Source of the DNA: an uncultured Verrucomicrobiae bacterium
Lineage (GTDB): Bacteria; Verrucomicrobiota; Verrucomicrobiia; Opitutales; Opitutaceae
Assembly (NCBI GenBank): GCA_963830965.1
Contig: CAWHOL010000021.1
Coordinates: 88,120 to 152,119, forward strand
Direction of reading: 5' to 3'
Length of the DNA stretch: 64,000 nt
Below the pieces are notes generated by a model. The model saw only the letters and a list, made by a program, of their open reading frames with translations. It had not been told where the DNA came from and did not search any database. Of the stretch, positions 1,772-20,800 are shown in pieces; position 1 is the first letter of the stretch, and the number at the start of each line of letters is the position of its first letter. A program made the translations under genes and the position numbers.

Positions 1772-2712
1772 GGCAGTTGCAGCGCAAATCCGTCCGCCGC
1801 GAGGTCCGCGGCGTGCACCGCCGCGGCGCAGTCGGGCGGGACGATGATCCGGAGGCTCCGGGGGAGGACCGCAACCTCGATCGTGGCCCCGGCGGAGTGG
1901 GTCTCCCCGTCGGTGTGGACGAGCCCCGGCGCCGGGCGCTCGATCTGAAAGCTCGCCCCCCGCATGCGGCGGACGCGGCTGCTCCGGTCGATCGACCCGA
2001 GGAACAGCCGGGCGCCGAGGAAGCACGCGGCGACGACCCCCACGGGGCGGATGATGACCAGGTCGAGGACCCCGTCGTCGACGCGCGCGTGCGGGGCGAT
2101 CTTCGCGTTGTTGCCGTACTGGTCGGAATTGGCGACGGCGATCAGGAGGATCTCCACCCGCTCCCGTCGGCCGGCCACGGCCACGGTGCAGTGCTCCGAC
2201 TTGCGCCCGAGGAAGGCGGAGAGGGCGGTCCGGGTGTAGGCGGGCAGGCCCCGGCGCGTCAGGCGGTTGAAGCGGCAGGCGACGTCGGCGTCGAGGCCGA
2301 GGCCCATGGCGTTCACGAAGGGGCGCCCGTTGACCGTGCCCGTGTCGATTTCCACGGCGCGGCCTCCGGGTCCGGCCGCCAGTTCGAGGGCCCGGGAGAA
2401 GGTCCTCGGCAGGCCCAGGTGGAGGGCGAGGCCGTTTCCGGAGCCGCAGGGGACCAGTCCCAGGGTGGCGGGGGTGTGGATGAGCGCCTGGGCCACCTCG
2501 TTCACCGTCCCGTCGCCGCCGACGGCGACGATCCTCTGGCAGCCTGCGGCGACCGCCTCGCGGGCGATCTCGGTGGCGTGGCCGGGTCCCTCGGTGCAGA
2601 CCAGGTCCGCATCGAGCGGCATCGACGCCACGAAATGGCGCAGCATGGGGAGAATGGGCGCGTTTCGGCGCGGCCTTCCCGAGCTCGGGTTGAAAATGAG
2701 GCGTACCTTCAT
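1768..2712 (-). CDS. Diacylglycerol/lipid kinase family protein (YegS/BmrU-like)
   Basis: Internal ATG of ORF 1768..3429 (MKVRLIFNPSSG...). It has the VAVGGDGTVNEV and PCGSGNGLA motifs of the DAGK catalytic domain. There is an ATGA overlap with the upstream gene. Confidence 0.8.
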   Translation of the reverse strand: MKVRLIFNPSSGRPRRNAPILPMLRHFVASMPLDADLVCTEGPGHATEIAREAVAAGCQRIVAVGGDGTVNEVAQALIHTPATLGLVPCGSGNGLALHLGLPRTFSRALELAAGPGGRAVEIDTGTVNGRPFVNAMGLGLDADVACRFNRLTRRGLPAYTRTALSAFLGRKSEHCTVAVAGRRERVEILLIAVANSDQYGNNAKIAPHARVDDGVLDLVIIRPVGVVAACFLGARLFLGSIDRSSRVRRMRGASFQIERPAPGLVHTDGETHSAGATIEVAVLPRSLRIIVPPDCAAAVHAADLAADGFALQLP

Positions 2713-3860
2713 CGGAGGGCGGGTGAGAGGCCGGAGCTTGGCGCCCCGGCTCCTCCGGCGGCGTGCGCCAGCACGTGGGCGGCGATCATGCGCGCCGCGT
2801 CGGGGCGCGCCATGGGCTCGAGCGCGGCCCGCCACTGGGCCCAGTCGCGGCCCTGGTCCCGGAACGCGCGCCCGAGGACCTCGATGACGGCCTCGGGGGT
2901 CGTCGCCAGCGCGCCGGCCCCGTGGCGAAGCAGAAGCTGGCAGTTGCCCTCCTCCTGGCCGGGGACCACCTGGTTGACGACCATGGGGCACCGCGCCGCG
3001 ATCGCCTCCTGGGTCGTCGCCCCGCCCGCCTTGCTGACGACGACATGATGGGTCATCAGCAGGTGGGGGATCTTGTCCGTCCAGCCGAGGATTTCCGCCT
3101 TGCGCGCCCTCCCGCCCGAAAGGGCGGTCAGGGTCCTGCGCAGCGACTCGTCGCGGCCCACCGTGCACGTCACCTCCCAGCCCTCCTCGGCGAGGAGGAG
3201 CCGGGCCGTCGCCTCGGCGTTGCGCGTCCCGGAGTTGACGATGTAGAGGATCCGGGGAGCCGCACCCTCGTCGAGGCGGGGCCTTGTGACGATGCCCTCG
3301 TTCCTTCGGAAGTAGGGCGTCACGGGAAACCCGAGGACATGCAGGCGCGAGGGGTCGACCCCGGCCTCGCGCATGACCTGCGCGGAATCCTCGTTTGGGA
3401 CGAACCATCCGTCGCATCCGGGCCTCCACCAGACCGAGTTGATGCTGATCGAGTCGGTCACGATGTTGAAATGGGGGATCGACAGCTGCTCCTCGGCGGC
3501 GAATCGCTGCAGGAGCGCCGCATAGGCGGGGAAAGTGCTGCAGATCGCCACGGGGCGCTCGCGCTCGATCACCCGCTCGAGCATGCGCGCCTGGGCGCGG
3601 AGCATCCAGACCCCGTTCTTCATGAATCCGGGCCTGTCCATAAGGGCGTAGAACCTGCTCCAGAGCCGGGGCGTCCCGTTGATCGCGGCCAGGTAGGCCC
3701 TGCGCACGAGCGTGTTGAGCCGCGGGCAGGTGAGCGCGAAGATATCGACCACAACCGCCGTCCCGGGCGCCTCTTCGTTGAAGGCCGTGGCGAGCGCGTG
3801 GGCGGCGGCGTTGTGGCCCTCTCCGTACGCCGCGGTCAGGATGAGGATGCGGTGCTTCAT
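2709..3860 (-). CDS. MGDG-synthase-like glycosyltransferase (GT28, UgtP/monogalactosyl- or glucosyl-diacylglycerol synthase family)
   Basis: Internal ATG of ORF 2709..4550 (MKHRILILTAAYGEGHNAAAHAL...). The N-terminal YGxGH motif and the C-terminal SKAGGATTQEA...P..PGQEEGN motif are typical of the MGDG synthase/UgtP family. There is an ATGA overlap with the GT4 gene. Confidence 0.75.
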   Translation of the reverse strand: MKHRILILTAAYGEGHNAAAHALATAFNEEAPGTAVVVDIFALTCPRLNTLVRRAYLAAINGTPRLWSRFYALMDRPGFMKNGVWMLRAQARMLERVIERERPVAICSTFPAYAALLQRFAAEEQLSIPHFNIVTDSISINSVWWRPGCDGWFVPNEDSAQVMREAGVDPSRLHVLGFPVTPYFRRNEGIVTRPRLDEGAAPRILYIVNSGTRNAEATARLLLAEEGWEVTCTVGRDESLRRTLTALSGGRARKAEILGWTDKIPHLLMTHHVVVSKAGGATTQEAIAARCPMVVNQVVPGQEEGNCQLLLRHGAGALATTPEAVIEVLGRAFRDQGRDWAQWRAALEPMARPDAARMIAAHVLAHAAGGAGAPSSGLSPALR

Positions 3861-8891: not shown

Positions 8892-11542
8892 ATGCAAACC
8901 CACGGTCCGAAACGGGTGTATACGCCCCATTCGCTGGAATACTGGTTCGACATACTTGCGGACGACTGGTCGGAGACGTTCACCTCGAGCCAGCTGGACG
9001 AGGGGCGGCGCATCTACCGCAACGGCGAGGTGCGCGAGCTCGAGCTGACCGACCGGGATGCGATCATCCACCGGCGGATCGAGAAAAAGGACGAGTATGC
9101 GGTCATCGAATGGACCTCCGGGACCCTGTCGGTCCGGTCGTCGACGACCGACCGCGAGATTGCCCATGCCCTTGCTGTGGCGGGACTTCACGAAATAGAG
9201 GAGCTGGTGGCCGACGAGATTTCGCCGCTCCCGGCCGACCCCGAAACGCTCACCCGGCTCAGCGCGGGGGCAGGCAACGGAAAGGCGGCGGAGCGCGACG
9301 CTGCCCTGAGCGCGGCGGACCGGTTCCCCGGCTCAACGGCCCCTCCCGGCCGCTCATGCTCGTCTTCAAGATCAAGTCCTCCGGTCTCTCGTTCCAGGCC
9401 TGCTGGGTCGACAGCGACGGGAAGGCGCGCCATCCGGCGCTTGGTCCCGACGCCCACAGCCACGCCAATGGCAACGGCCATGTCTCATCGGGCGAGCGCG
9501 CCAAGCTGATCGGCCTGGCGGCGTACGCCCGCAAGGCCCATTTCCAGTACAACCAGGACACGGGGGCGTATCTCATGGAGTCCCTCGTCGAGATCCCCAA
9601 TTTCCTCAAGGTCACGCTGCCGCTCTGGAAGCGGGTCTTCTCGATCGAGCTCGATGACAAGACCGCTAACCTGCTCAAGGGAACCCGCAGCGTCGAGATC
9701 GAGGCGGTGGCGGAGCGCTCCCAGGGCGACGCGGGGCTCAACCTGCGCTGGATCTTCCGCACGGGCGAGCGGATGCTGACGGACGCGGAGGTGTCGTCGC
9801 TGCTCAAGCGCGGAGGCCAGCCGGTCATCCTGCCGAACCTCGGCATCGTGGCTCTCTCGGCGGAGAAGTGGGAGTCGTTCAGCTCGTGGCGCCGCAACCT
9901 GGCGGACACCCAGGAGGGCGGGGCGGCCCAGCTCCAGTACCTCATCTTCTCCCTGTTCAACGACGCCCGGCTCAAGCTCACGCTCTCGCCCGAGATGGAG
10001 GCCTGGCGCCAGAGGGTCCTCGCCGCGCCGCAGTCCCCGCCGCAGACGGCCGCGATCCTGCGCCCCTACCAGCGCCGGGGCGTCGAGTGGATGCACCACC
10101 TCTGCGAGGTCGACTGCCACGGGCTCCTGGCGGACGAAATGGGCCTCGGCAAGACGCTCCAGGTGCTCGCCCTCCTGGCCATCAGGGCCACGAAGGAGCG
10201 TCCGAGCGTCATCGTGTGCCCCGCCAGCGTCGTGCCGGTCTGGCGCGAGGAGGTCTCCAAGTTCTTCCCGGAGATCAGGGTCGACGTGCTGAAGACGGGC
10301 AACGACTTCAGCTCCAACAAGGACCCGGTGATCTGGCTGTGCAGCTACACGCAGATGAGGAAGCACCGCGCGCTCCTCGACAGCTTCGAGTTTGGATACG
10401 CCGTCCTCGACGAGGGGCAGTTCATCAAGAATCCCGATGCCAAGGTCACCCAGACCTGCTTTGCCATTCGGGCGCGCCACCGCATCGTGCTGACGGGGAC
10501 CCCGCTCGAGAACCGCCAGCTCGACCTCTGGAGCATCTTCCGGTTCCTGCTTCCCGGGCTCCTCGGCTCGCGCTCGTCGTTCGAGGCCGCCCTCAACACG
10601 GACCGCGAGGGGACCCTGGCGAGGCTGAGGGCGCAGCTGGCGCCGTTCATCCTCCGGAGGACCAAGAAGGAGGTCGCCCAGGAGCTTCCGCCGAAGGTCG
10701 AAATGGACCTGATCTGCCCGCTCACCGACGTGCAGCGCGCCGAGTACGCCCGGATCTGCACGGAGGGCCTGGAGAGGCTGGGCGACGACGTGGGCTCCGC
10801 CATGAGGGAGAAGTCGTTCGGGTTCCTGGCGCTCCTGACCCGGCTGCGCCAGACCTGCTGCGACCCCGACATGCTCCCGTGGCTGAAGGCGCCCCTGGCG
10901 GACTCGGGAAAGATCAACCTGCTGATGGAGAAGCTGGCGGAGATCGTCGGCAGCGGCCACAAGGTCGTCATCTTTTCCCAGTTCGTGATGCTGCTCGACC
11001 GCGTGCGCGCCGCGCTGATCCAGAACTTCCCCGACCTGGCGAGGTTCGAGCTGACGGGCATGACGCTGGACCGGCTGAAGCCGGTCCAGGCGTTCCAGGG
11101 CGCGCCCGGCGCCGCCGCCATGCTCGTTTCGCTCAAGGCGGCCGGCACCGGCATCACGCTCCACGCCGCGGACTATGTCTTCCTGCTGGATCCCTGGTGG
11201 AACCCCGCGGTCGAGGCGCAGGCCGTCGACCGGGTGCACAGGATCGGCCAGACGAACACCGTCTTCGTCTACCGCATGGTGACCGCGGGCACGGTCGAGG
11301 AGAGGATCCAGGCCCTCAAGGCCTCGAAGAGGGACCTCTTCGACCGGCTGGTCGGGGGCCTTGGCGGCGACTTCGACCTGAGCCAGCATTTCTCATCGAT
11401 GAAGAGCCTGGTCCAGCTAACGGCCTCGCCCGAGCAGGAGCTGCCGGAGCGTTGGCCCGAGACCCCCGCGCCTGGCGCGGCTGGCGGCGTCGGCGAGCAG
11501 CCTTCCCTCCCTCCTCAGGACGGCGAGGAGCGCGCAGGGTAG
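8892..11542 (+). CDS. SNF2-family DEAD/DEAH helicase with an N-terminal SNF2-associated domain (frame interrupted around 9320-9350 as assembled)
   Basis: ORF 9110..11542 carries LADEMGLGKT, DEGQFIKN, LTGTPLEN and the helicase-C motifs (LVSLKAAGTGITL, WWNPAVEAQAVDRVHRIGQ). ORF 8892..9509 encodes a plausible N-terminal domain up to about aa 145 and then junk. The two frames meet near a CCCC run at 9326-9329. An alternative in-frame ATG at 9356 would give a shorter protein. Confidence 0.85.
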
Positions 11543-11667
11543 GGCGAGCATGGCCGCGGCGAGGAAGGGCCCCGGCAGCCCCGAATGCCGCAGGGCGACC
11601 GGGCACAGCGCGGCTCCGCCGGCGACGAGGCAGGCCCTGAAGGCGCCCCTTCGGATCGCGGCAGCCC

Positions 11668-12129
11668 TCACGCCCCCGCTTTGGCGGCGCGGCGGGGACG
11701 CCTCGGCGCCTTGAATTCGGCGGACGCCTCGATCGACACGGCGGCGGAGGCGGGAGCCGCCGCCGGATTCGCCTCCTCCTCGGGGCGCCTGATGTGCAGG
11801 AACTGGACGTTCTCGGCGACGACCTTCATCCGCGAGCGCTTCGCGCCGCTGTGCCGGTCCTGCCACTGGTCGACGTCCATCCGGCCCTCGACAAGGACGA
11901 GCGAGCCGAGGGTCAGGAAATGGGCGCAGGCCTCGCCGGGCGGGCCCCAGACCTCGATGTCGTTGATGAAGGTCGTGCGCGTCACCTTTTCGCCGCTCTC
12001 GTCGCGGGTGTTCCGGTTGATCGCCACGTTGAGCAGGCAGAGGGCCTGCTTTTCCCCGCTCTGCTGGAAGCGCAGCTCGGGCGCCTTTGTCAGATTGCCG
12101 ATGAATGCGTATCGATTGAGGTAGGGCAT
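11668..12129 (-). CDS. ssb: Single-stranded DNA-binding protein with a non-canonical basic C-terminal tail
   Basis: ORF 11668..12129. The OB-fold region (NRYAFIGNLTKAPELRF...VEGRMDVDQWQD...KVVAENVQFL) matches bacterial SSB. The tail ends ...EFKAPRRPRRAAKAGA and has no D-D-D-I-P-F-like tip. Confidence 0.88.
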   Translation of the reverse strand: MPYLNRYAFIGNLTKAPELRFQQSGEKQALCLLNVAINRNTRDESGEKVTRTTFINDIEVWGPPGEACAHFLTLGSLVLVEGRMDVDQWQDRHSGAKRSRMKVVAENVQFLHIRRPEEEANPAAAPASAAVSIEASAEFKAPRRPRRAAKAGA

Positions 12130-12153
12130 GGGCCCGTTTTAAAAGTCACGTAA

Positions 12154-12167
12154 TTAGACAAGTCAAA
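12154..12167 (-). promoter_or_regulatory. 14-bp motif TTTGACTTGTCTAA (minus-strand reading), copy A, 25-38 nt upstream of the ssb start
   Basis: Plus strand reads TTAGACAAGTCAAA at 12154-12167. It is identical to the copy at 15754-15767. It contains the -35-like TTGACT, and TTTAAA lies 17 nt downstream. Confidence 0.4.
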
Positions 12168-12234
12168 GAAAATCAGCGGATGTGTTAATTTGCGGCCGCT
12201 GCGGGGCCCGCCGCGGACCGCCTCGCGGCCGGGG

Positions 12235-12846
12235 CTAGTCCCGGGGTTCCCCTGCCTCGGCTCGTCCCCCGGGGGGCTTCGCAGCCGCCGCCGGGCGGCT
12301 TGCGGCCTCGAGTTCGGCGATCCGGGCCTGCGCCCGGGCGAGCATTTCCGCCAGCTTCCGGGACTCCGCCTGGAGTTCGAGGGCCTGCGCGGAGAGCTCG
12401 CGGCTGCGCTCCATCACGGTTCCGAGGGCGTTGTCCATCCTGGCCGAGCTCTCGCGGTTGGCGGCGACCTCGGCGGCGAGTTCCTGCGGCAGGAGCGCGG
12501 GCTGGTAGGCGAGCTCTCCGCGCGCGATCTCTCCGGCCACGATCCGCATCGAGGTCGGGGCGCCCTCGAGCGATTGCGCGTCCGTCTCGCGGACAAGCGC
12601 CAGGCGGCCGTCGAGCAGCATGAGCCGGTAGGCCGCGGGCAGCGTGATCCGGTCCGGAAGCCGGACCGCCTCCCGGCCGGCATCGGGGCCCGGAGTGTCC
12701 GGCGGCCCGCTCAAGAGGCCTGCGTCCACGGGCGAGGCCGGCGCTCCCACATGGGCCGTCGCGGGCCCGGGCTGGCCCCGGTTGGGTCCCGCGCATCCCC
12801 CGGCGAGGGCGAGGCCCGCGAGCAGAGCTGTGGGGGCCGCCTTCAA
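12235..12846 (-). CDS. Lipoprotein with a C-terminal coiled coil (occupies the TraV/VirB7 position of the T4SS-core-like operon)
   Basis: ORF 12235..12846 with a TTG start that overlaps the upstream stop (TTGA). It has a signal peptide plus lipobox-like LALAGGC. The C-terminus is heptad-like (ELSAQALELQAESRKLAEMLARAQARIAELE). Confidence 0.65.
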   Translation of the reverse strand: MKAAPTALLAGLALAGGCAGPNRGQPGPATAHVGAPASPVDAGLLSGPPDTPGPDAGREAVRLPDRITLPAAYRLMLLDGRLALVRETDAQSLEGAPTSMRIVAGEIARGELAYQPALLPQELAAEVAANRESSARMDNALGTVMERSRELSAQALELQAESRKLAEMLARAQARIAELEAASRPAAAAKPPGGRAEAGEPRD

Positions 12847-14045
12847 CCGGTTTGCCGGCGCCCCGCCGGAAGCTTGAGCCCGACCGCCGCGGCGCCCGGG
12901 TCGATCGTCTGTTCAACGAACAGGTAGAATTCCTTGCCGGCCGGAACCCGCACGTAGACGCCCCGCTTTGAGATCTCCTCGCGAATTCGGCTGACGATCT
13001 GGTTCATGACCTCGGTCGTGGCGCCTCCAAGGGAGCTGGCGGCGGCGTTGCCGATCGTCGGTGCGATCTGGGTGGCGCCGAGGACGCCGGAAACCCCCGC
13101 GGCCGGCTGCTGGCGCTCGGCCACGGCCGCGATGCCCTGCGCCATGCCGCTGATCGCCGCGGCCGCGAAGAGCTTGATTTCACGGTCGTCGAGGGACGAG
13201 AGCGTGTAGCCCACAAGCCCGTCCGTGCCGTCGTCGAGCCCCCACGAGCGGGCCTGGCCGCGGTCGCCGACGACCGTCTCGCGCCGGTCGAGGGCCCGGG
13301 CCTTCAGGACGAGCTCGCGTCCGTTGGCGCGGGCGCCCTCTTCGGGAAGCACCAGGGTCCATTCGCCCTCGTCCACAAGCCGCCCGACGCCCGACGCGTC
13401 GATGACGGGCTCGGGCTTCGCATAGCTGAAGACCTCCGTCCCCGCCGGGATGATCACGTCGCCGTTCCAGTCGAGGTCCTGGGTCACCAGGGCGACGATG
13501 GGCTCCGACCGGGCGGTCACGCTGTCCAGGGTGGCGATGAGCTGGCACTTGAGGAGGCGGCCAAAGGGGGCGAAGGCGGCCGCCGGGGATGGGGCCGATT
13601 CGGCGCGGGGCTGCGCGCGGGCCGCAGGGGGCGGCGCGGCTGCGGCCGCGGCCCCCGGGTCGGGGGGCATCCGGAAGATCTCGGGCAGCGTCCTCTTCTC
13701 GTCCCTTCGCCGGTTTGCGGGGCCGCCTGGGTTCGGGTCGGGCGAGCCGGTGTCCTTGGCCGGGACGCCGTCCGCAAGATTCTGGACCGGCTTCGGCCGC
13801 TCGACCTCGCGCCGGTAGCCGCTCGAAACCGGGGAGGCTTCCCGCTCCGCCTCCGACGGGCTGATCTGCTCGGCCGGCAGGCGGGTGGGGAACGCCGCCT
13901 GCGGCAGTTCGGCGCGGGCCGGCGCGGGCCGGCTCCGAGCCTGCCAGATGAGCGCCGCCGCGAGGGCCGCGGCGCCGAGCATGAGGGCGCGCCCCCTCAG
14001 CGAGATTCGGGGGGGGCGCGCGGGTTCCGTCTCGGGCTCGTTCAC
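12843..14045 (-). CDS. VirB10/TrbI/TraB-like T4SS core protein
   Basis: Part of ORF 12843..14624. The GTG start at 14045 lies 5 nt after the upstream stop. The architecture is a short N-terminal tail, one TM helix (ALMLGAAALAAALIW), a Pro/Ala-rich linker, and a C-terminal domain that fits the TrbI pattern (LLKCQLIATLDSV...VIIPAGTEVFSY; DDGTDGLVGYT; LFAAAAISG; VYVRVPAGKEFYLFVEQTID). Confidence 0.62.
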   Translation of the reverse strand: MNEPETEPARPPRISLRGRALMLGAAALAAALIWQARSRPAPARAELPQAAFPTRLPAEQISPSEAEREASPVSSGYRREVERPKPVQNLADGVPAKDTGSPDPNPGGPANRRRDEKRTLPEIFRMPPDPGAAAAAAPPPAARAQPRAESAPSPAAAFAPFGRLLKCQLIATLDSVTARSEPIVALVTQDLDWNGDVIIPAGTEVFSYAKPEPVIDASGVGRLVDEGEWTLVLPEEGARANGRELVLKARALDRRETVVGDRGQARSWGLDDGTDGLVGYTLSSLDDREIKLFAAAAISGMAQGIAAVAERQQPAAGVSGVLGATQIAPTIGNAAASSLGGATTEVMNQIVSRIREEISKRGVYVRVPAGKEFYLFVEQTIDPGAAAVGLKLPAGRRQTG

Positions 14046-14050
14046 GGGTT

Positions 14051-15025
14051 TCAGGGGATCTCGAGCGGCATCCGCCTGACGGGCCTCGGATTCGCCGAGG
14101 CCCGGACGAGGGCACTGATCTCGAAGACATTGTCGGGCAGGAGCCGCGTCGGCCCTCCGTCGGGCCCGCGCGCGAGGACAAGGAACACAGGCTCCGCGGC
14201 CCCGGGGCCGAGTTCGCCGCCGAAGTCGACCGTGCGCACGGGGTAGACCCTGTCGCCGACGCGGACGACCCAGCCCGTGGGATCGAACAGGAGAACGCGC
14301 GCGGTCGCGTTCGCGACGCTTGCACAGATGCCGAGCGTGTCGGTGGACCCGTCCCTGAGCGCGAAGCGGGGGGCGACCGTGAAATCCCCAAAGCTCCGGG
14401 GGACCCCGTCGAGCGCGGCCAGCTCGAGCGCGGGGTTGGCCCCTACGAAACCCCGGGCGGACTCCGCGGTGGAATTGAGCACGAGGCGCAGGGTCTCGAT
14501 GAGCCCGATCTCCGACTCCGGGCTCGGCTCCCTCAGGCGGGTCCCCGGGGGCCTCGGGGAGAGCGAAACGGCGAGCCTCGGCTCCGGGCTCGGCCTGTCG
14601 GCGCCAAAGACCACCTTGCGCCACGCCAGGCCCGCCGGAGCCGGCACGAATTCCACGGGGACGCTCCGGGTCGAGCCGCCGGGCTCGGCGAGCACGATGT
14701 CAAGGACCCGGTGCGCGCCGGCGGCAACCGGCGTCACGAAGAGGCGCGCCTTGCCGCGGTTCGCCTCGATCACGAAGTCGCCCGCGAACTTCTCGGCGTC
14801 CGGGGTGAATCCGCGTCCCGCCCAGTCCTCAAGGGGCCACGGGAAGTCGAGCTCGACCGTGTTTTCGGGCTCGGTCGGAACCTCGATGGGCTGGCGCTCC
14901 TCGGACTCGGGCTTGAGGGCGATCCGGACGATGCTCTGGAGCGGGGAGCCGTCTGGGGCGGGCGCGGAGGCGCGCGCCGCGCACGCGGCCGCGGACGCTG
15001 CGAGGAGCGCGCGCGCAAGGCTCAC
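14051..15025 (-). CDS. Secreted VirB9/TraK-like protein (tentative)
   Basis: ORF 14051..15025 with a GTG start that overlaps the upstream stop (GTGA). It has a cleavable signal peptide (AAACAARA-SAP). The N-terminal beta-rich segment (...ARLFVTPVAAGAHRVLDIVLAEPGGSTRSVPVEFVPA) resembles the VirB9/TraK N-domain pattern. The call rests on position and pattern only. Confidence 0.38.
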   Translation of the reverse strand: MSLARALLAASAAACAARASAPAPDGSPLQSIVRIALKPESEERQPIEVPTEPENTVELDFPWPLEDWAGRGFTPDAEKFAGDFVIEANRGKARLFVTPVAAGAHRVLDIVLAEPGGSTRSVPVEFVPAPAGLAWRKVVFGADRPSPEPRLAVSLSPRPPGTRLREPSPESEIGLIETLRLVLNSTAESARGFVGANPALELAALDGVPRSFGDFTVAPRFALRDGSTDTLGICASVANATARVLLFDPTGWVVRVGDRVYPVRTVDFGGELGPGAAEPVFLVLARGPDGGPTRLLPDNVFEISALVRASANPRPVRRMPLEIP

Positions 15026-15723
15026 GGGACCTCCTTGTCCCCCGGCCAGCGCACGGCGGCCCGGTGCCTCACGACGACGAAGGGATAGCGGCCCATCTGC
15101 ATGGCGTCCTCCTGGGCGGCCAGCTCGACGACGAGGTGGAACTCGCCGGGAGGCGGCTGGTAGGGGAGGCCCTCGATCGCGCCCGAGCGGACGACGAAGC
15201 CGCGGACCCGGTAACGCGGGGAGCTCCCTTCATCCAGCACCTCGATTCCCTCGACCTCGGGATGGTCGTACAGGTTCCGGCGCTTGCGCTCGGGCAGTTC
15301 CGAGCGCACCTCGGCGTCCAGCGCCCGCCAGCTCTCGCCGACGAAGATCCTGCGCGCAACCTCCGGGTAGGAGAGGCCCGAGGGGTTGCGTGTGAAGCAC
15401 GCCTGCGCGGCCTGAAGGAGGATCTCGCGGAAAAGGGAGCTTCTGGCCTCCGCGGGCTTTACGGGGCCGTAATGGATGGTCCCGGCCCCGTCGACCGAGT
15501 AGGCCCAGACGCCCTCACGCAGATTTGCGGTGCCCCGCTCGAGGATGAGGAGGCAGGCGAGCGGGCACACCGTCGCGACCGCCATGCAGAGGACCTTGAT
15601 CTGGTGCTCCGCGACCCAGCGCTGGGCCGGGCTGAAGGGCGACGCGAGGGCGTGCTCGGTCCGCGGGCCCGCGTTGGCGGGCCTGCGCGGCACCTCCGGC
15701 TGTTCGGTATCGCCCTCCTTCAT
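15022..15723 (-). CDS. Bitopic VirB8/TraE-like protein (tentative)
   Basis: ORF 15022..15723, 233 aa. It has a ~40-aa cytoplasmic N-terminus, a single TM helix (VLCMAVATVCPLACLLIL) and a ~170-aa periplasmic domain, which is VirB8-like size and topology. It is the first gene of the coupled operon. Confidence 0.38.
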   Translation of the reverse strand: MKEGDTEQPEVPRRPANAGPRTEHALASPFSPAQRWVAEHQIKVLCMAVATVCPLACLLILERGTANLREGVWAYSVDGAGTIHYGPVKPAEARSSLFREILLQAAQACFTRNPSGLSYPEVARRIFVGESWRALDAEVRSELPERKRRNLYDHPEVEGIEVLDEGSSPRYRVRGFVVRSGAIEGLPYQPPPGEFHLVVELAAQEDAMQMGRYPFVVVRHRAAVRWPGDKEVP

Positions 15724-15753
15724 CGGGCGCGCAGGAGAGCACGCCCGAGATTG

Positions 15754-15767
15754 TTAGACAAGTCAAA
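15754..15767 (-). promoter_or_regulatory. 14-bp motif TTTGACTTGTCTAA (minus-strand reading), copy B, 31-44 nt upstream of the VirB8-like start
   Basis: Plus strand reads TTAGACAAGTCAAA at 15754-15767. It is identical to copy A and overlaps the stop codon (15763-15765) of the upstream 107-aa ORF. Confidence 0.4.
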
Positions 15768-16086
15768 CTTTACGCTTTAATCGGCGGGACTTCGGCTTCG
15801 GGCCCGGGGCCACGGGGGGGCGCCCCTCCCCGGTTTCCACCCACTTCTCCGCCCGCCTGAGCGCGGCGTTCGCCGGCCCGCCCAGCTCGACGAGGCGCGG
15901 GCCTGAACGCGCCCCTGTGGTGGCGTTCAGGAAGTAAATCGTCTCCGCCGGGTCCTCCCCCGGCAGCGGCGGCGGCGGCAGCCTGCGGATCGTCCCGACG
16001 TAGCCGAGGCCGAGGCGCTTGGAACGCCCCTTCGCAAGGCCCGTCAGGAAGCGTTCGAAGGCGGCACGTCGCTGGGAGGGATTCAT
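15763..16086 (-). CDS. Hypothetical small basic protein (107 aa)
   Basis: ORF 15763..16086. It has high third-position GC, no TM segment or signal peptide, and a Lys/Arg-rich C-terminus (KPKSRRLKRKV). I recognise no family. Confidence 0.5.
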   Translation of the reverse strand: MNPSQRRAAFERFLTGLAKGRSKRLGLGYVGTIRRLPPPPLPGEDPAETIYFLNATTGARSGPRLVELGGPANAALRRAEKWVETGEGRPPVAPGPKPKSRRLKRKV

Positions 16087-16147
16087 TTTTTGCGGGAAAA
16101 GCTGAAGAGAAAGCGGTTGCTAAACGTGTCCAATCAGGCTAGATAAA

Positions 16148-16193
16148 TTTTCACTCGTTTTCAACCATCTTATAACCTAATTGATCCCATCAA
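16148..16193 (+). promoter_or_regulatory. Candidate sigma70-type promoter (TTTTCA-17 nt-TATAAC) followed by the palindrome TTGATCCCATCAA upstream of the 16200 gene
   Basis: AT-rich divergent intergenic region 16087-16199. The -35-like element is at 16148-16153, the -10-like element at 16171-16176, and the 13-bp palindrome at 16181-16193, just before the ATG at 16200. Confidence 0.3.
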
Positions 16194-16199
16194 AACTCC

Positions 16200-16823
16200 A
16201 TGAGTGACAAGACCAAAACGAATGAGGCGCCGCTTAAGGGCCTCTCCGCCTCGGCCGCCGCCTCGCGCGGGATGGCGGAACCCGATGTCGTCGATTTCCT
16301 GCCTCTGCCCGTGTATCCGCTCCTCGGCGTGCAGGTCCACTGCGTGCGCTGGCAGAAGATCGTCCAGGGAATGAGGAAAAAGGGCGTCATCGTCCGGGTG
16401 CACCGCGAGAGCGACCGGGGCGGCCTCTTCAAGGCGGCCTCAAGGGTCGGCGTAAAGCTGACGAGCCGCCGGTGCGCCGGCTCCGAGGGGCCGAGCTGGC
16501 TCGTGCGGATCCGGGACTCCGGCGCCAGGAACGCCGCCGACATCGACGCCGCCGACCCGACCGCGTCGGACCGCGGGCGCTACCGGGCGCTCGGCCTCCT
16601 CGTCCTCGAGCGCGGATCCCTTCCCATCCAGCGGCGCGACATGGCCACCGCCCTCCACCGCTCGCTCAGGGAGTTCATCCGCGAGAATGCGCTCGCCGGG
16701 CGCCGGCAGCGCAATGCGGTCGTGGTGACGGCGCAGTCGGGAGGCGAGTTCGTCGTGTCGGTCGCTCCGAGCATCCGGGCGGCCTTCGCGGCGCGCGAGA
16801 GGAACAAGAGTCCCGCCGCTTGA
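16200..16823 (+). CDS. Hypothetical protein (207 aa), upstream partner of the AAA+ ATPase
   Basis: ORF 16200..16823. It has a strong GC3 bias typical of coding sequence here, no TM segment, and no family I recognise. It ends 34 nt before the AAA+ gene. Confidence 0.6.
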   Translation: MSDKTKTNEAPLKGLSASAAASRGMAEPDVVDFLPLPVYPLLGVQVHCVRWQKIVQGMRKKGVIVRVHRESDRGGLFKAASRVGVKLTSRRCAGSEGPSWLVRIRDSGARNAADIDAADPTASDRGRYRALGLLVLERGSLPIQRRDMATALHRSLREFIRENALAGRRQRNAVVVTAQSGGEFVVSVAPSIRAAFAARERNKSPAA

Positions 16824-16857
16824 CGAGGGACCCCGCCTCGGCCAAGAAGGCTCGGAA

Positions 16858-17826
16858 ATGGCGGGGACATCGAACGAACCGGGGGGCCTCGCCCTCTACC
16901 GCGGCCTGCGCGCCCACCTGGGGGGCGCGGTCCTCGGCCAGGAGGAGGCCGTCTCCGGGCTCGCCGACGCCCTGCTCGCGGGAGAGATGGGCCATACGCC
17001 GCCCGGGAGGCCGAGAAGCCTGGTCCTTGTCCTCGGGCCGACGGGAACCGGCAAGACGAAGGCCGTCACGGCGGCGAGCCGCTACCTTTACGGCACCGAG
17101 GCGACCGCGCGGATAAACGCGGCCGAGTTCTCCTCGGAGGCGCGGGTCCCGCTCCTTCTGGGGACGCCGGGCGAGCCCGGCCTCCTCGGCAGGCGGATCG
17201 GGGAACTCAGGCGGGCCGGCGGGCGAATCCTCCTCCTCGACGAGATCGAGAAGGCCCACCCGAGCGTTTCCGACTACCTGCTTGGGATCGAGGAGGCCCA
17301 GGTCACGCTCTCGAGCGGCGAGACGCTCGACCTTTCGGACCTCCATATCGTCGCGACCTCCAACATCGGCTCCGCCGGCGTGATCGAGATGGAGGGGGTG
17401 GCCCGGGCCTCGGTCCGGAGGTTTGTCGAGCAGGAGGCAGCGGCCCATTTCAGGCCGGAGGTGCTCGCGCGATTCACGTCGATCCTCGTCTTCGGCCACC
17501 TGACGCGCGACATCCAGCTTGGCATCTGCAGGCAGATGCTAGAGCAGGAGCTCTTGTTCCAGTCGGGGGTGCTTTCGGGCAGGTTTGGCCATCCGCACAG
17601 GGTCCGGGCCGCGGCCGACGTCGGCCGCAGGCTCGTGAGCGAGGGATGGCACCGAAAGCTCGGGGCGCGGCCGATGCGCAATGTCGTCGAGCGCCGCGTC
17701 CGGACGGCCCTCGTGGATTCGCAGCTCCGCGGGGCCCTGGGTCCGGGCGTCCGGGAATCGGTGCTGGTCGTGGACGCAGCCGGGGGCATCCGCGCCGCCG
17801 TGGCGCGGGCCCCAGTCACGCTTTGA
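16858..17826 (+). CDS. Stand-alone AAA+ ATPase of the ClpA/ClpB D2 (AAA_2) type
   Basis: ORF 16858..17826. It has Walker A (GPTGTGKT), Walker B (LLLDEIEKAH), sensor-1 (ATSN) and sensor-2 (GARPMRN), and is colinear with the ClpB D2 large and small subdomains. It has no N-domain, D1 or middle domain. Confidence 0.8.
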   Translation: MAGTSNEPGGLALYRGLRAHLGGAVLGQEEAVSGLADALLAGEMGHTPPGRPRSLVLVLGPTGTGKTKAVTAASRYLYGTEATARINAAEFSSEARVPLLLGTPGEPGLLGRRIGELRRAGGRILLLDEIEKAHPSVSDYLLGIEEAQVTLSSGETLDLSDLHIVATSNIGSAGVIEMEGVARASVRRFVEQEAAAHFRPEVLARFTSILVFGHLTRDIQLGICRQMLEQELLFQSGVLSGRFGHPHRVRAAADVGRRLVSEGWHRKLGARPMRNVVERRVRTALVDSQLRGALGPGVRESVLVVDAAGGIRAAVARAPVTL

Positions 17827-17870
17827 TCGCCGCGGGCGTTCCGTTCCGCCCGCCCGGCCCGAGGAGGGCG

Positions 17871-20800
17871 TCAGCTCCGGTCCGGGTAGGGCGGGGGGGG
17901 CGGGACCGACTGCGCGTGCGTCTTCAGCTCGAGGAGGATCTCCTCGATGCCCCGGTCGAGCTGCTGGTCGACGCCCGAGAATTCCTTCGCGGGGTCGTTG
18001 TCCACGACGATGTCGGGATCCACGCCGTGCCCCTCGACGGGCCATTCCTTGCCGTCCTTCGAATAGGGAGCGAATTCCGGCTTGTTGAGGAAGCCCCCGT
18101 CGACGATCGGCAGGGTCTCCCTGATCCCGACGACGCCGCCCCAGCTGCGCTTGCCGATCAGCTTGCCGAGGCCGTCCGACTTGAAGCGGAAGGGGAAGAT
18201 GTCGCCGTCCGAGGCCGAGAACTCGTCCATCAGGACGACCTTCGGCCCGAGCTGCATGTCCGCGGGGTTCGTCTGCGGGGTCGCGTTCCTCGCCTTCTCA
18301 AACATCACGAGCTCGCGAGAGAGCCGTTCGATCACCATCGGCGAGACGAAGCCGCCCCCGTTGCCGCGGTCGTCGATGATGAGCGCCTTCTTGTGGAGCT
18401 GCGGGTAGAAGTGCTTCGCGAACTCGTCGAGGCCCCCGAATCCCATGTCGGGTATGTGGATGTAGCCGACCTGCCCGCCCGTCTTCTCGGTGACGTAGTC
18501 GGTGTTGTGCTGGACCCACGTGCGGTAGTAGAGGGGGGCCTCGTCGGCCGTCGGCACCACCGTGACATTGCGCGCGCCGTCGTCGACCGGCTTCGAGTTG
18601 ACCCGCAGGACGACCTGCTTGCCCGCCTTGCCGATCAGCGCGGAATAGATGTTCGAGAGTCCGCTGACGGGCTTGCCGTCGACAGCGAGGATGTAGTCGC
18701 CCTCGCTCACGTTCACGCCGATCTCGGTGAGCGGGGAGCGCTCGGCCTCGACCCAGTTCTCGCCGCGGAGAATCTTGTCGATCCGGTAGGCGCGGCTCTG
18801 CGGGTCGCGCGAGAGCTGCGCGCCGAGGAGCCCCAGGGGCACCTTCGGCGCCTGGGGGCGGTCGCCGCCGCCGACATAGGTGTGGCCGCTGTGGATCTCC
18901 CCGATCAGCTCCCCGATCAGGTAGGTCAGGTCGTAGCGAGTCTGGGCGTAGGGGACCAGGGCCGCGTACTTTGCGCGCATGGCCGGCCAGTCCACGCCGT
19001 TCATGGTCGGCGAGAAGAAGTAGTCGCGCATCTGGCGCCAGCACTCGTCATAGATCTGCGCCCACTCGGCGTGCCGATCGAGGTTCATCTCGAGGGCGCC
19101 GAACGAGAGCTTGTCCTTCACCTCGAACTTGGCCGTCGGCAGGTCGATGATGGCGAAGTCCTTACCCACGGCGACCAGCATCTTCTTGCCGTCGTGGCTG
19201 ACCTCATAGCCCGCGACCGCGCCGAGCTCGGTCTCCTTCTGGTCCTTCAGGTTGTAGACAAGGAGGGTCTTGTCCGGCGCCCCTCCGCCCTCGTCGTCCC
19301 CGGCCCCGTCCGAATCGCTTCGCAGGTAGTACACGTTGTCGCCGACCCCGGTCAGGGTGTCGTAGTTGGCCGCCTTGATGGGGAGCCCGACCAAGCGGTC
19401 CTTGATGCCGTCCGGGTCCACCTTGACGACAACCGCCTTCGGGGCGCTGTCCTTCTTGGCATCCTTCGCGTCGGCGGCCTTGTCGTCGGCCTTGGGGGCG
19501 GCCGGCGCGATCTGCACCTCGTCGCTCTTCGGCTTGAACGGTGACTCGGTGTCCTTCGCGAGCGTGATCAGGTACACCCGCTCGAGGTCCTTGTAGATGT
19601 GCTCGAGCTCGAAATCGCTCAGCGTCGGCTTGAAGTCGCGGCCGGAGGCGAAGAGCAGGTACTTCCCGTCGTCGCTGAAGCTGGGGCTGCTGGCCTCATA
19701 CCAGCCGTCCGTGGCCGCGAACTTCACGCCGTCCTTGAGCCCGTAGAGCCACACCTTCGTCAGCGATTGGTCCTCCGGCCTAGACCACGTGATCCACTCG
19801 CTGTCGGGGGACCAGGCGTACTGGCGGATCTCGAAGGCCGTCGCCGTGTCGACGAGCGTCACCGCCTTTGTCTCCACGGTGACGTAGCGCAGCCGCTGGA
19901 GCCGGTCGGACCAGAGCAGCTTCTTGCTGTCGGGCGACCAGAGCGGGTTGTAATAGTAGGTGTCGGCACCCTTCGTGAGCTGCTCCGGCGAGCCGGTTCC
20001 GTCCTGGGCCCGGACGTAGAGCTCGTTCTCGCCCGACTCGTCGGAGACGTAGGCGATCCACTTGCCGTCGGGCGACCAGACGGCGTCCCGCTCGTGGACG
20101 CCCGACTTTGTGCTCAGGTTGCGCGTGGCGCCGTCCTTGGCGGGGACCGTGAAGGTGTTTCCCCGGGCGTTCACGACCGCGCGCTTGCCGTCGGGCGACA
20201 GCGAGACATTGGCGACAAAGGCGGCGACGTTGACGATCGCCGAGCGCGAGGTGACGAAATCATCCCTGACCTCGATCGGCAGGCGCTTGGTCGCGCCCGT
20301 CTTGAGGTCGAACGACCAGATGTAGCCGGCCTCCTCGAACACGATGAGCCCTCCGCCGAGCGACGGGAACTTGATGTCAAAGTCCTTGAAGTGGGTGTGC
20401 TGCGCGGTCGCCTTGGTCGCCAGGTCGTAGCTGTAGAGGTTCAGCCTCTTCGCCCCTTCGGAAAGCCGGTCGGAAAGGAAGTAGATCCGGTTGTTCGGCG
20501 CCCACATCGGGATGATGTCCTGGGCGGGGTTGTTCGTGATGTCCTCGATCGCGCCGGTCTTGAAGTCGTAGATCCAGATGTCGTCGGCCATTCCGCCGCG
20601 GTAGTCCTTCCAGGTCCGGAATTCCCGGAAGATGCGGTTGTAGGCCATCTTGGAGTCGTCGGGCGACATCGACAGGAAGCCGCCGCGCGGCACGGGAAGC
20701 ACCTTTGGAAGGTCGCCGTCCGCTCCGACGCAGAAGAGCTGCCCGTTGAACGGGTCGAAGGAGCGCATCCTCGAGCGGAACACGACCTCGGGAGAGGTGT

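Follow-up and report, generated by a model that had tools for sequence, protein, structure and literature searches.

How does a short, exactly repeated DNA element come to lie both in front of an accessory ssb gene and in front of a type IV secretion (T4SS)-like gene cassette in an uncultured member of the Opitutaceae? An initial annotation of a 64,000-nucleotide stretch of this genome (hereafter the window) had pointed out an identical 14-bp motif at these two places and had proposed either a shared promoter or operator that co-regulates ssb and the cassette, or att-like or target-duplication repeats that mark the ends of a ~3.6-kb insertion. To test if the repeat is real, we searched the window and the 4.33-Mb, 64% G+C genome. 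TTAGACAAGTCAAA occurs at 12154-12167 and 15754-15767 on the + strand and nowhere else exactly in the genome, where we estimate from base composition that about 0.003 exact copies would be expected. No further match with up to 2 mismatches exists in the window (expected 0.05 by shuffling). The observation is therefore confirmed. On the coding (-) strand the element reads TTTGACTTGTCTAA, and it is separated by 24 nt from the ssb ATG (12129) and by 30 nt from the VirB8-like ATG (15723). Two points required correction, as the dyad is TTAGAC-NN-GTCTAA, from which the window copies depart at one position (A3 to T on the coding strand), and a degenerate third copy lies in a neighboring intergenic region. 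The features of the locus are as follows.

11668..12129 (-), accessory ssb, the second SSB paralogue of the genome (Pfam SSB 4e-22); the housekeeping ssb is at 3941-4255 of contig C11, and the accessory copy is absent from cassette-less genomes.
12138..12143 (-), TTTAAA, the -10 proposed for ssb by the initial annotation, 17 nt after TTGACT.
12154..12167 (-), motif copy A, a predicted regulon operator that contains a -35-like TTGACT; position weight matrix (PWM) score 28.6 bits.
12181..12189 (+), TGTGTTAAT, the regulon's extended -10 consensus string, on the + strand side of copy A and displaced 8 nt from the canonical spacing.
12235..12846 (-), lipoprotein-like 203-aa coiled-coil protein with a signal/lipobox-like N-terminus, the last gene of the core cassette; no family hit, syntenic in relatives.
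12843..14051 (-), VirB10/TrbI-like protein, start codon uncertain (Pfam TrbI 3.2e-12, above its cut-off).
14051..15025 (-), VirB9-like protein, as assigned by the initial annotation; no HMM hit, but distant homologues sit beside VirB6-like and VirB8-like genes in other T4SS-like clusters.
15022..15723 (-), VirB8-like protein, as assigned by the initial annotation; no HMM hit, but orthologues at 74-83% identity in 14 of 24 genus genomes searched and 27-32% homologues in T4SS-like clusters elsewhere.
15725..15746 (-), G+C-rich hairpin between copy B and the VirB8-like start codon, predicted to fold in all 15 orthologues (-10 to -25 kcal/mol) with compensatory changes.
15754..15767 (-), motif copy B; best PWM score in the genome, 33.3 bits.
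15763..16086 (-), p107, a small basic 107-aa protein and first gene of the cassette operon, whose TGA stop (15763-15765) is overlapped by copy B; conserved at 52-68% identity, with an AF2 model (pLDDT 78) of alpha-beta3-alpha topology that gave no structural match.
15776..15781 (+), TTTAAT, a -10-like box at the regulon's canonical spacing from copy B, facing away from virB8 and toward p207 and the AAA+ gene.
16120..16133 (+), the degenerate third copy, CTAAACGTGTCCAA, in the divergent p107/p207 promoter region, followed 10 nt later by TAAATT (16144-16149), facing p207.
16200..16823 (+), p207, a 207-aa orphan and candidate motif-binding regulator, from a rare family with a tentative LAGLIDADG-like fold.
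16858..17826 (+), stand-alone ClpB/ClpA D2-type AAA+ ATPase, predicted to be cotranscribed with p207 (Pfam AAA_2 1.3e-20 and ClpB_D2-small; NCBIfam ClpB D2 region).

To assess if the two copies mark the ends of an inserted cassette, we compared the locus across the genus. The two copies do have the same orientation and lie just outside the first and last genes of the VirB8-lipoprotein block. However, the whole locus, from a tricorn protease to a P-type ATPase, is syntenic in all 14 relatives that carry the cassette, and six of 15 cassette-bearing genomes lack the ssb copy. The block missing from other genus members runs from ssb to the AAA+ gene (about 11.6-17.8 kb), not from motif to motif, and its flanking genes lie on different contigs there. 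The initial annotation had asked if relatives lacking the cassette retain a single motif copy at an empty site, and we found no copy next to the flanking genes in these genomes, and no empty site exists. As no integrase lies at the locus and six further copies of the motif lie at unrelated promoters, we consider the insertion reading refuted.

To determine if the element is more widespread, we scanned the genome with a PWM built from relatives. Exactly 8 sites scored 19 bits or more, with the next best scoring 15.8, and these are copies of a 14-bp palindrome, TTAGAC-WW-GTCTAA, of which the window sequence is a variant. All eight sites lie in A/T-rich spots at gene starts, namely those of the VirB8-10-like cassette, ssb, radC, a type IV coupling-protein (T4CP) gene, a surface-protein/TrwC-relaxase operon, a VirB4-like operon, a secretin/type IV pilus operon, and a small ORF plus recA. 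In addition to SSB and TrbI, profile searches of the downstream genes identified RadC (6e-39), Secretin (6e-33), an N_methyl pilin, T2SSE (7e-86), T2SSF and TrwC (4e-12), with weak TraG-D_C and TrwB hits; the TrwC/TraI relaxase domain was also matched in PDB (6e-9), and recA was recognized by its N-terminal sequence. The proposal of a shared promoter or operator for ssb and the cassette is thus right in kind but too narrow, and the initial interpretation is only partly supported.

We next asked if the sites are conserved at orthologous positions in metagenome-assembled genomes of the same genus. Copy B is identical in 10 of 14 orthologous loci and has 1-3 mismatches in the rest, although the spacer next to it varies. 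Copy A is present upstream of ssb in 9 of 15 cassette-bearing genomes as TTTGAC(A/T)TGTC(T/C)AA. Sites before the T4CP, surface-protein, radC, secretin, VirB4-operon and recA genes are conserved in 2-7 genomes each. Across the genus, the 21 genomes with p207 have 3-13 pattern hits each, while 12 of the 18 without it have none and the other six have 1-5, five of them in a 64%-complete genome; the reversed-pattern control gives 0-4. The exact palindrome was found in none of 194 genomes from 62 other genera of the family. As all system-bearing genomes form a single clade, the co-occurrence of motif, p207 and T4SS counts as one evolutionary event, not many.

To examine how the palindrome is positioned relative to promoters, we aligned 21 gene-oriented sites. 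At these sites the palindrome covers the -35 and upstream spacer of a sigma-70-like promoter (TAGACT, 17 nt, TGn-TAATnn), with TTAA at motif positions 24-27 in 15-20 of 21 sites, preceded by TG.G. The right half of the dyad (G9 T10 C11 T12 A13 A14), which falls in the promoter spacer, is about as conserved as the left half (21, 21, 21, 20, 16 and 20 of 21), which points to a symmetric protein and is not explained by sigma factor contacts alone. We also considered that the motif is the promoter of a dedicated alternative sigma factor (ECF or competence-type) with incidental symmetry. The fixed geometry between the motif and a downstream TTAAT box, and an ECF sigma/anti-sigma pair divergent from the secretin operon in this genome, are in line with this idea. 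However, given the conservation of both halves, the occurrence of the element in either orientation relative to genes, hexamers that fit the housekeeping TTGACA/TATAAT pattern, and the absence of the ECF pair next to the secretin operon in G004, the one relative with enough upstream sequence, we regard this possibility as very unlikely.

At the two exact copies in the window this geometry is reversed. The two window copies and the VirB4-operon site lack the -10 box on the side of the T4SS genes and carry it on the opposite side. For copy B, the box PWM scores +5 to +16.5 on the p207 side in 12 of 14 orthologues, against -11 to -23 on the virB8 side, and from the sequences we read the box as kept in three genomes where p107 ends at or before it. 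These copies may therefore fire antisense, they may act only as operators or roadblocks, or the box may have another role. The TTTAAA of the ssb promoter proposed in the initial annotation (TTGACT-17 nt-TTTAAA, giving a near-leaderless mRNA) is present in this genome, but the proposed promoter is not conserved, as most relatives have a purine-rich, Shine-Dalgarno-like box at that place, and a strict sigma-70 scan finds nothing.

From these data, we propose that the two 14-mers are copies of a clade-specific cis-regulatory palindrome that serves as the operator of a dimeric or pseudo-dimeric DNA-binding protein and is built into the promoters of a chromosomally dispersed DNA-transfer and recombination regulon; we give this reading a probability of roughly 0.85. 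In this genome the regulon would comprise p107 with the VirB8/9/10-like genes, a lipoprotein and the accessory ssb; a small membrane protein, a VirB4-like ATPase and a VirB6-like protein; a type IV coupling protein; a surface protein and a TrwC-type relaxase; a secretin with PilB, a pilin and PilC; radC; a small ORF followed by recA; and, in some relatives, a tyrosine recombinase. In this model, the palindrome at most sites spans about -36 to -23, its left half supplies the -35 (TAGACT, or TTGACT in the window copies), a TGn-TAATnn -10 follows after a 17-nt spacer, and the start codon lies only 27-45 nt beyond the motif. A protein bound there would block RNA polymerase, so we infer a repressor that keeps the whole apparatus silent until induced. 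The recurrence, conservation, dyad symmetry, promoter geometry and phyletic pattern of the element are direct results of our sequence analysis, whereas the action of a repressor rather than an activator, the identity of the binder and the transcription start sites are inferences.

An alternative is that the palindrome binds an activator that recruits RNA polymerase to promoters with a weak -35 (TAGACT), as PhoB-type or class II activators do. The -35 is suboptimal at 20 of 21 canonical sites, and A3 is kept although a T would give TTGAC. At recA the palindrome is atypical, lying 8 nt upstream of a TTGACT, a consensus -35, which is an activator-like position, and the good -35 and missing sense-side -10 of the two window copies could mean that they depend on a factor. 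However, the center of the dyad lies near -29.5 and covers the -35 and the spacer, the usual place of occluding repressors, whereas class II activators center near -41.5 and MerR types need 19-20-nt spacers. In addition, the motif overlaps the start codon at the VirB4-operon site and at a remote p207-like gene. An activator therefore remains possible but unlikely.

As recA, ssb and a tyrosine recombinase, all classical SOS genes, carry the motif in several genomes, we tested if it could be a LexA box. The only S24-peptidase/LexA gene (contig C19, about 21.9-22.5 kb) has no such site upstream, and the motif is missing from sister species that lack the T4SS, within the limits of the pattern counts given above. 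The motif does not match the TGTTC-N4-GAACA motif of Verrucomicrobia, of which this genome has no copy, and is not known to match other LexA motifs. An SOS box is therefore highly unlikely. We also considered a centromere-like or relaxosome site (parS/KorB-type or oriT-type) that lies near promoters only incidentally, as short palindromes in several copies are typical of ParB/KorB sites, which also silence transfer promoters on IncP-1 plasmids (PMC11790492, PMC2680271), and a relaxase belongs to the regulon. However, all eight copies sit at fixed distances from start codons within a promoter-like grammar, no ParB-like gene turned up in the operons examined, and the sites are spread over at least four chromosomal contigs, making this reading very unlikely as well.

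To identify a candidate for the protein that binds the motif, we examined p207, which lies in the co-inherited block. The 113-bp p107/p207 intergenic region is nearly invariant in 16 genomes and holds the degenerate motif copy, most genomes having CTAAACGTGTCTAA, N10, TAAGTT. Foldseek places p207 nearest the two-domain LAGLIDADG proteins I-DmoI and WhiA-N (E 4e-4), although with TM-scores of only 0.25-0.30 on a model of pLDDT 72, and no sequence profile recognizes a DNA-binding domain in it. The family has only 12 clusters among 1.84 billion representatives. Remote homologues on a conjugative-element-like contig and a plasmid-like contig carry the same GAC-WW-GTC core at or just before their own start codon and before two other genes. 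By our count from the gene table, all 3 copies on the first contig are intergenic, where 10% of the DNA is intergenic. One of these contigs keeps the same AAA+ partner, in the same operon as the p207 homologue, at 47% identity. We propose that p207 is the most likely binder, that it is probably autoregulated through the degenerate copy in its own promoter, and that it works with its AAA+ partner.

We compared this predicted regulon with the closest known systems. The KorA/KorB/TrbA global operators of IncP-1 plasmids (RK2) are likewise short palindromes repeated at many promoters of transfer and maintenance genes, some overlapping the -35 or -10, which gives one coordinated switch for a conjugation apparatus (PMC2680271, PMC11790492). 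Here, the sites are chromosomal and vertically inherited within a clade, the motif sequence is unrelated, no ParB/KorB homologue was seen, and the candidate binder belongs to a rare family with no characterized member that we could find. In the CRP-S/Sxy competence regulon of Haemophilus and other gamma-proteobacteria, a palindromic site marks a regulon that combines pilus and secretin genes with the cytoplasmic DNA-handling genes ssb and radC (PMC1635313). CRP-S is a 22-bp activator site, however, while the regulon described here holds a relaxase, a coupling protein and VirB-like genes; ComEC was not found in the 93%-complete genome, and dprA carries no site. EcxR/ApxR/ErxR of Anaplasmataceae bind the promoters of several dispersed virB/D operons and of their own gene (PMC9657007), but those systems secrete effectors in obligate intracellular bacteria, and both regulator family and motif differ from those of this system, which carries relaxase, SSB and RecA functions in free-living soil Verrucomicrobiota. 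A further comparison is the Helicobacter pylori ComB system (PMC7366825). There, VirB8/9/10-type genes sit in a chromosomal operon apart from the VirB2-4-type operon, both serving DNA transfer, but ComB has no relaxase or coupling protein, works in uptake, and is not known to have a common operator.

WhiA, a transcription factor derived from a LAGLIDADG homing endonuclease, has a C-terminal helix-turn-helix domain and occurs in Gram-positive bacteria, whereas p207 has no such domain, pairs with an AAA+ ATPase and occurs on or near conjugation genes. If the fold assignment holds, p207 would be a second case of a catalytically degenerate two-domain LAGLIDADG scaffold used as a regulator. Together, these analyses indicate that the repeated motif is not an insertion scar but a conserved, putative regulatory site in front of about eight scattered operons in one clade of uncultured peat-soil Opitutaceae, which ties an apparently orphan secretion cassette to its missing partners and points to a rare, uncharacterized protein as their candidate regulator.

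To test whether the repeated motif is real and how widely it occurs, we first searched the window for matches with up to two mismatches. We observed TTAGACAAGTCAAA at two positions on the + strand and no other match in the window, where shuffled sequence gives 0.05 matches, confirming the observation made in the initial annotation. On the coding strand the motif reads TTTGACTTGTCTAA. The features of the window that bear on this analysis are as follows.

12154-12167, + strand: motif copy A, separated by 24 nt from the ssb ATG.
15754-15767, + strand: motif copy B, separated by 30 nt from the ATG of the VirB8-like gene and overlapping the stop codon of p107, the 107-aa ORF.
15725-15746: conserved G+C hairpin that abuts the VirB8-like start codon.
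15776-15781, + strand: -10-type box at the canonical spacing from copy B, overlapping the last codons of p107.
16087-16199: p107/p207 intergenic region with a degenerate copy of the motif.

To ask if the motif has relatives elsewhere, we searched the whole 4.33-Mb, 64% G+C assembly of 23 contigs with mismatches and found near-perfect palindromes, TTAGAC-WW-GTCTAA, on contigs C7, C11 and C8 of this genome, all in A/T-rich spots directly before start codons. Homologous sequences derive from uncultured Opitutaceae (Verrucomicrobiota) MAGs from palsa, bog and soil. We then built a position matrix from 47 sites of relatives and scanned the genome with it. Exactly eight sites score 19 bits or more (19.4-33.3 bits), whereas the next best scores 15.8, and all eight lie at the starts of DNA-transfer or recombination operons.

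The eight high-scoring sites and the genes downstream of each.
Window copy B: p107 (ends at the site), VirB8-like, VirB9-like, VirB10/TrbI, lipoprotein.
Window copy A: accessory ssb, a second paralogue; the housekeeping gene is on C11.
C7:102255: radC.
C7:126426: coupling-protein-like ATPase (membrane N-terminus, GATGSGKT).
C7:124200: Pro/Thr-rich surface protein, then a TrwC-type relaxase (Pfam 4e-12, PDB TrwC 6e-9).
C11:87418: 94-aa membrane protein, 940-aa VirB4-like ATPase, lipoprotein, polytopic VirB6-like protein.
C11:185867: secretin, PilB-type ATPase, pilin, PilC.
C8:527574: conserved small ORF followed by recA.

The strength of these gene assignments differs. The relaxase domain and TrbI/VirB10 are clear, but the coupling protein (T4CP) and VirB4 rest on Walker motifs, size, gene context and sub-threshold hits, and a search of the VirB4-like protein against PDB sequences returned nothing. 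VirB8 and VirB9 rest on context only; searches of Pfam and NCBIfam with p107, p207 (the 207-aa protein encoded divergently from p107), the VirB8-like and VirB9-like proteins and the lipoprotein gave no family. Distant VirB8-like and VirB9-like homologs (27-32% identity) lie beside a VirB6-like polytopic protein in lower-G+C clusters of three genomes (G019 contig C3, G025 and G035); these clusters lack the motif and are probably conventional conjugative elements of the same T4SS type. The coupling-protein-like gene (C7:124232-126399) is frame-broken in this assembly by one extra base near C7:125915 compared with the intact ortholog in the relative G022, and the surface-protein gene behind C7:124200 also changes frame after its signal peptide; these could be assembly indels or decay.

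The recA site lies about 50 nt before a conserved ORF of about 107 aa that precedes recA (C8:527197-527587, and loci L071, L074 and L084), and it is followed 8 nt later by TTGACTT, which could be a second half-site or a -35, with CTGGCT conserved 17 nt further on. In three relatives (G020, G017 and G018; loci L081, L088 and L097) a tyrosine recombinase (Phage_int_SAM_4 plus Phage_integrase) also carries a perfect copy upstream. Its ortholog in the genome studied here, at a contig end (C3:35779-36801), has a different perfect palindrome, ACGACATGTCGT, with the same GACATGTC core.

To assess conservation, we compared orthologous loci. The VirB8-like protein has orthologs (74-83% identity) in 14 of the 24 genus genomes first searched, and in all 14 the locus is syntenic: tricorn protease, AAA+, p207, p107, VirB8, VirB9, VirB10, lipoprotein, ssb, SNF2 helicase, P-type ATPase. 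Copy B is identical in 10 of 14 loci and nearly so in the rest, while the eight bases after it vary freely. Copy A is present in 9 of 15 cassette-bearing genomes; in the other six, ssb follows the lipoprotein gene after a short G+C-rich spacer with no motif. The other sites are conserved before their orthologous genes in two to seven genomes each. In one relative (G021, positions 2521-3219 of locus L089, C31:1-9000), p107, the motif, the hairpin and the virB8 start codon are kept, but the virB8 body and about the first third of virB9 are missing, a deletion of roughly 1.1 kb.

We next asked how the motif is distributed. Across 39 genus genomes, the 21 with p207 have 3-13 pattern hits each, whereas of the 18 without p207, 12 have none and six have 1-5, the five hits being in a genome that is only 64% complete; a reversed-pattern control gives 0-4. 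The exact palindrome was found in none of 194 genomes from 62 other genera of the family. Trees of the two flanking genes place all system-bearing genomes in one well-supported clade, so the co-occurrence is real but reflects a single gain or loss.

These comparisons also bear on the second proposal of the initial annotation, that the two copies are att-like or target-site direct repeats at the ends of an inserted cassette. The segment that varies among relatives does not coincide with the repeats, as genus members without the system lack the whole block from ssb to the AAA+ gene, and one repeat is dispensable, given the six of 15 genomes that have the cassette without copy A. No empty site with a single copy was found: in genomes lacking the block the SNF2 and tricorn genes lie on different contigs, with no motif within 1.5 kb. 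Furthermore, there is no integrase at the locus, and the same sequence sits at six unrelated promoters. This reading is refuted.

To determine how the element is built, we aligned 21 sites of four gene classes (T4CP, surface protein/relaxase, radC, secretin) with the gene placed downstream. The consensus is TTAGAC-TT-GTCTAA, then ..TG.G TTAAT at motif positions 20-28. This reads as a housekeeping-type promoter, with a -35 TAGACT at motif positions 2-7, a 17-nt spacer and an extended -10, TGn-TAATnn. The dyad therefore spans about -36 to -23, and its right half falls in the spacer, where sigma factors make no base-specific contacts, yet it is nearly as conserved as the left half (16-21 of 21 sites). 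We take this as the signature of a symmetric DNA-binding protein. As a protein bound at that position should exclude RNA polymerase, we favor a repressor (probability about 0.6) over an activator, which we consider possible but unlikely. Start codons follow 27-45 nt after the motif, from which we infer, by sequence alone, leaders of only about 4-20 nt, and no Shine-Dalgarno sequence is visible at these genes.

The two window copies depart from this arrangement. Both read TTTGAC on the coding strand, which gives a near-consensus -35 (TTGACT, or TTGACA in several ssb orthologs), but the -10 box is missing on that side. A -35/-10 pair at the expected spacing is found only on the + strand for copy B and in most relatives for copy A, and not on the coding strand. 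A strict sigma-70 and terminator scan of 11500-16400 found no promoter and one terminator-like site, no more than chance would give, and an Rfam search found no family within 9000-19000 at E up to 1. Before virB8 there is instead the G+C hairpin, which abuts, and in some relatives includes, the start codon, and which folds in all 15 orthologs with compensatory changes; it may be a translational or mRNA-stability element. Before ssb most relatives have a purine-rich, Shine-Dalgarno-like box.

On the opposite side, the -10-type box is present at the canonical spacing, with scores of +5 to +16.5 in 12 of 14 virB8 copies, against -11 to -23 on the sense side, and of +3.4 to +9.8 in 6 of 8 ssb copies. 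The same holds for the VirB4-operon site, where we found no conserved ORF on the far side: in G018 the box faces a 430-aa membrane protein gene about 100 nt away (locus L094 on contig C6, 2666-4071), whereas the neighbor is different in the genome studied here and in the relative G006. We read the copy B box as kept in three genomes where p107 stops at or before it, so the constraint acts on the DNA. Copy B may therefore fire on the + strand, antisense to p107 and onward into p207 and the AAA+ gene. Alternatively, the box may serve as an UP-like element of a sense promoter, or these copies may be operators only. This does not change the main conclusion, but it weakens the specific promoter that the initial annotation had proposed for ssb.

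To identify a candidate binder, we considered possible regulators in this genome. The only S24 gene, the canonical lexA, has no such site upstream, no TGTTC-N4-GAACA occurs in the genome, and the motif is absent from 12 genus genomes, counted without regard to whether they carry lexA; the motif does not behave as a LexA box. Membership in a natural-competence regulon is likewise not supported, as ComEC (PF03772) was not found in the 93%-complete genome, and dprA is present but carries no site. The ECF sigma gene next to the secretin operon is not there in G004, the one relative with enough upstream sequence for the comparison. None of the operon genes has a recognizable DNA-binding domain. For p107, a confident small alpha-beta3-alpha model found no structural neighbor, so it is not excluded as a regulator.

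The best candidate is p207, which lies in the co-inherited block and is 77-88% identical across the clade. Its 113-bp promoter region is almost invariant in 16 genomes, more so than the flanking proteins, and contains the direct repeat GTTTTCA-N3-GTTTTCA as well as a degenerate operator-like copy, CTAAACGTGTC(T/C)AA, followed after 10 nt by TAAGTT or TAAATT facing p207, which fits autoregulation. The AF2 model of p207 (pLDDT 72) has two alpha-beta repeats, and Foldseek ranks the two-domain LAGLIDADG proteins I-DmoI, WhiA-N, PI-SceI and the bI3 maturase first (E 4e-4, probability 0.99), but with TM-scores of only 0.25-0.30. A viral library gives weak hits to intein-bearing proteins, and neither Pfam nor a search of PDB sequences, including one with a p207 profile, returned a hit.

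The p207 family is rare, as an HMM search of 1.84 billion representatives finds only 12 clusters. Remote members, at 24-31% identity, carry a helix ending ...ALALAAIADG followed by a strand (VVVIEG), which resembles a LAGLIDADG motif. One lies on a conjugative-element-like 35-kb contig (Logan SRR33230216; 63% G+C; 20.7 kb examined) in the operon p207-like, topoisomerase, ClpB-D2-type AAA+ (47% identical to that of the window), near a TrwC relaxase and together with an Xre-type antitoxin, showing that the p207/AAA+ pair is a mobile-element module. Another lies next to a RepA_C plasmid initiator. GAC-WW-GTC occurs three times in the first contig, where all three copies are intergenic and just before gene starts and include GGAGACTTGTCAATG overlapping the p207-like ATG and GGAGACATGTCTAA 45 nt before another gene, and once in the second contig, in the p207-like upstream region; composition predicts 0.97 and 0.22 copies. 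The motif core thus travels with the protein family across unrelated elements, which is the strongest indirect evidence that p207 reads it, although this is still an inference.

Together, these analyses provide evidence that the motif is a new, predicted operator that defines a clade-specific regulon for a dispersed conjugation-type apparatus plus recombination genes, with a plausible and unusual candidate regulator. The first proposal of the initial annotation, a shared promoter or operator for ssb and the cassette, is right in kind and its second is refuted; its interpretation as a whole is partly supported. The recurrence of the motif, its conservation, symmetry, promoter-like layout and distribution come directly from the sequences, whereas transcription start sites, the sign of regulation, binding by p207 and any role of the reversed geometry at the T4SS-core operons are inferred.

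The closest analogs work alike but are not the same family. KorA/KorB/TrbA operators of IncP-1 plasmids are many palindromic operators coordinating transfer genes; the CRP-S competence regulon places ssb, radC, pilus and secretin genes under one palindromic site; EcxR in Anaplasmataceae controls scattered virB/D loci by one regulator; and WhiA is a homing-endonuclease fold turned regulator. No paper in the library searched contains any of the four 14-mers, and a search on Verrucomicrobia, type IV secretion and natural competence found nothing specific.

A bolder and only tentative hypothesis is that a subclade of uncultured peat and soil Opitutaceae has domesticated a conjugation-type machine (T4SS, type IV pilus, MOBF-type relaxase, coupling protein), scattered its genes around the chromosome, and wired them together with recA, an accessory ssb, radC and a tyrosine recombinase into a single gene-exchange regulon. 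In this view, the switch would be a previously unrecognized regulator family, a catalytically dead LAGLIDADG-like protein that reads GAC-WW-GTC palindromes, teamed with a ClpB-D2-type AAA+ ATPase that may strip or remodel it, and the module would be inherited from conjugative plasmids. The reversed promoter geometry at the T4SS-core operons would then be part of a convergent-transcription or feedback circuit.

These findings nominate a very rare protein family as a candidate sequence-specific regulator of conjugation modules, a proposal that short oligonucleotides and a small protein are enough to test in vitro without culturing the organism. They would also give an example of operon dispersal, showing how a mobile element's regulatory sites can persist after its genes are dispersed and host genes such as recA are recruited. 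Finally, the motif is a handle on the rest of an apparently orphan T4SS core cassette, as the predicted motor ATPase, coupling protein, relaxase, pilus and recombination genes lie elsewhere in the genome under what we infer to be the same control. This would turn a puzzling fragment into a complete, testable DNA-transfer system in abundant but uncultured Verrucomicrobiota of thawing peat and soil, where routes of gene exchange are poorly known.
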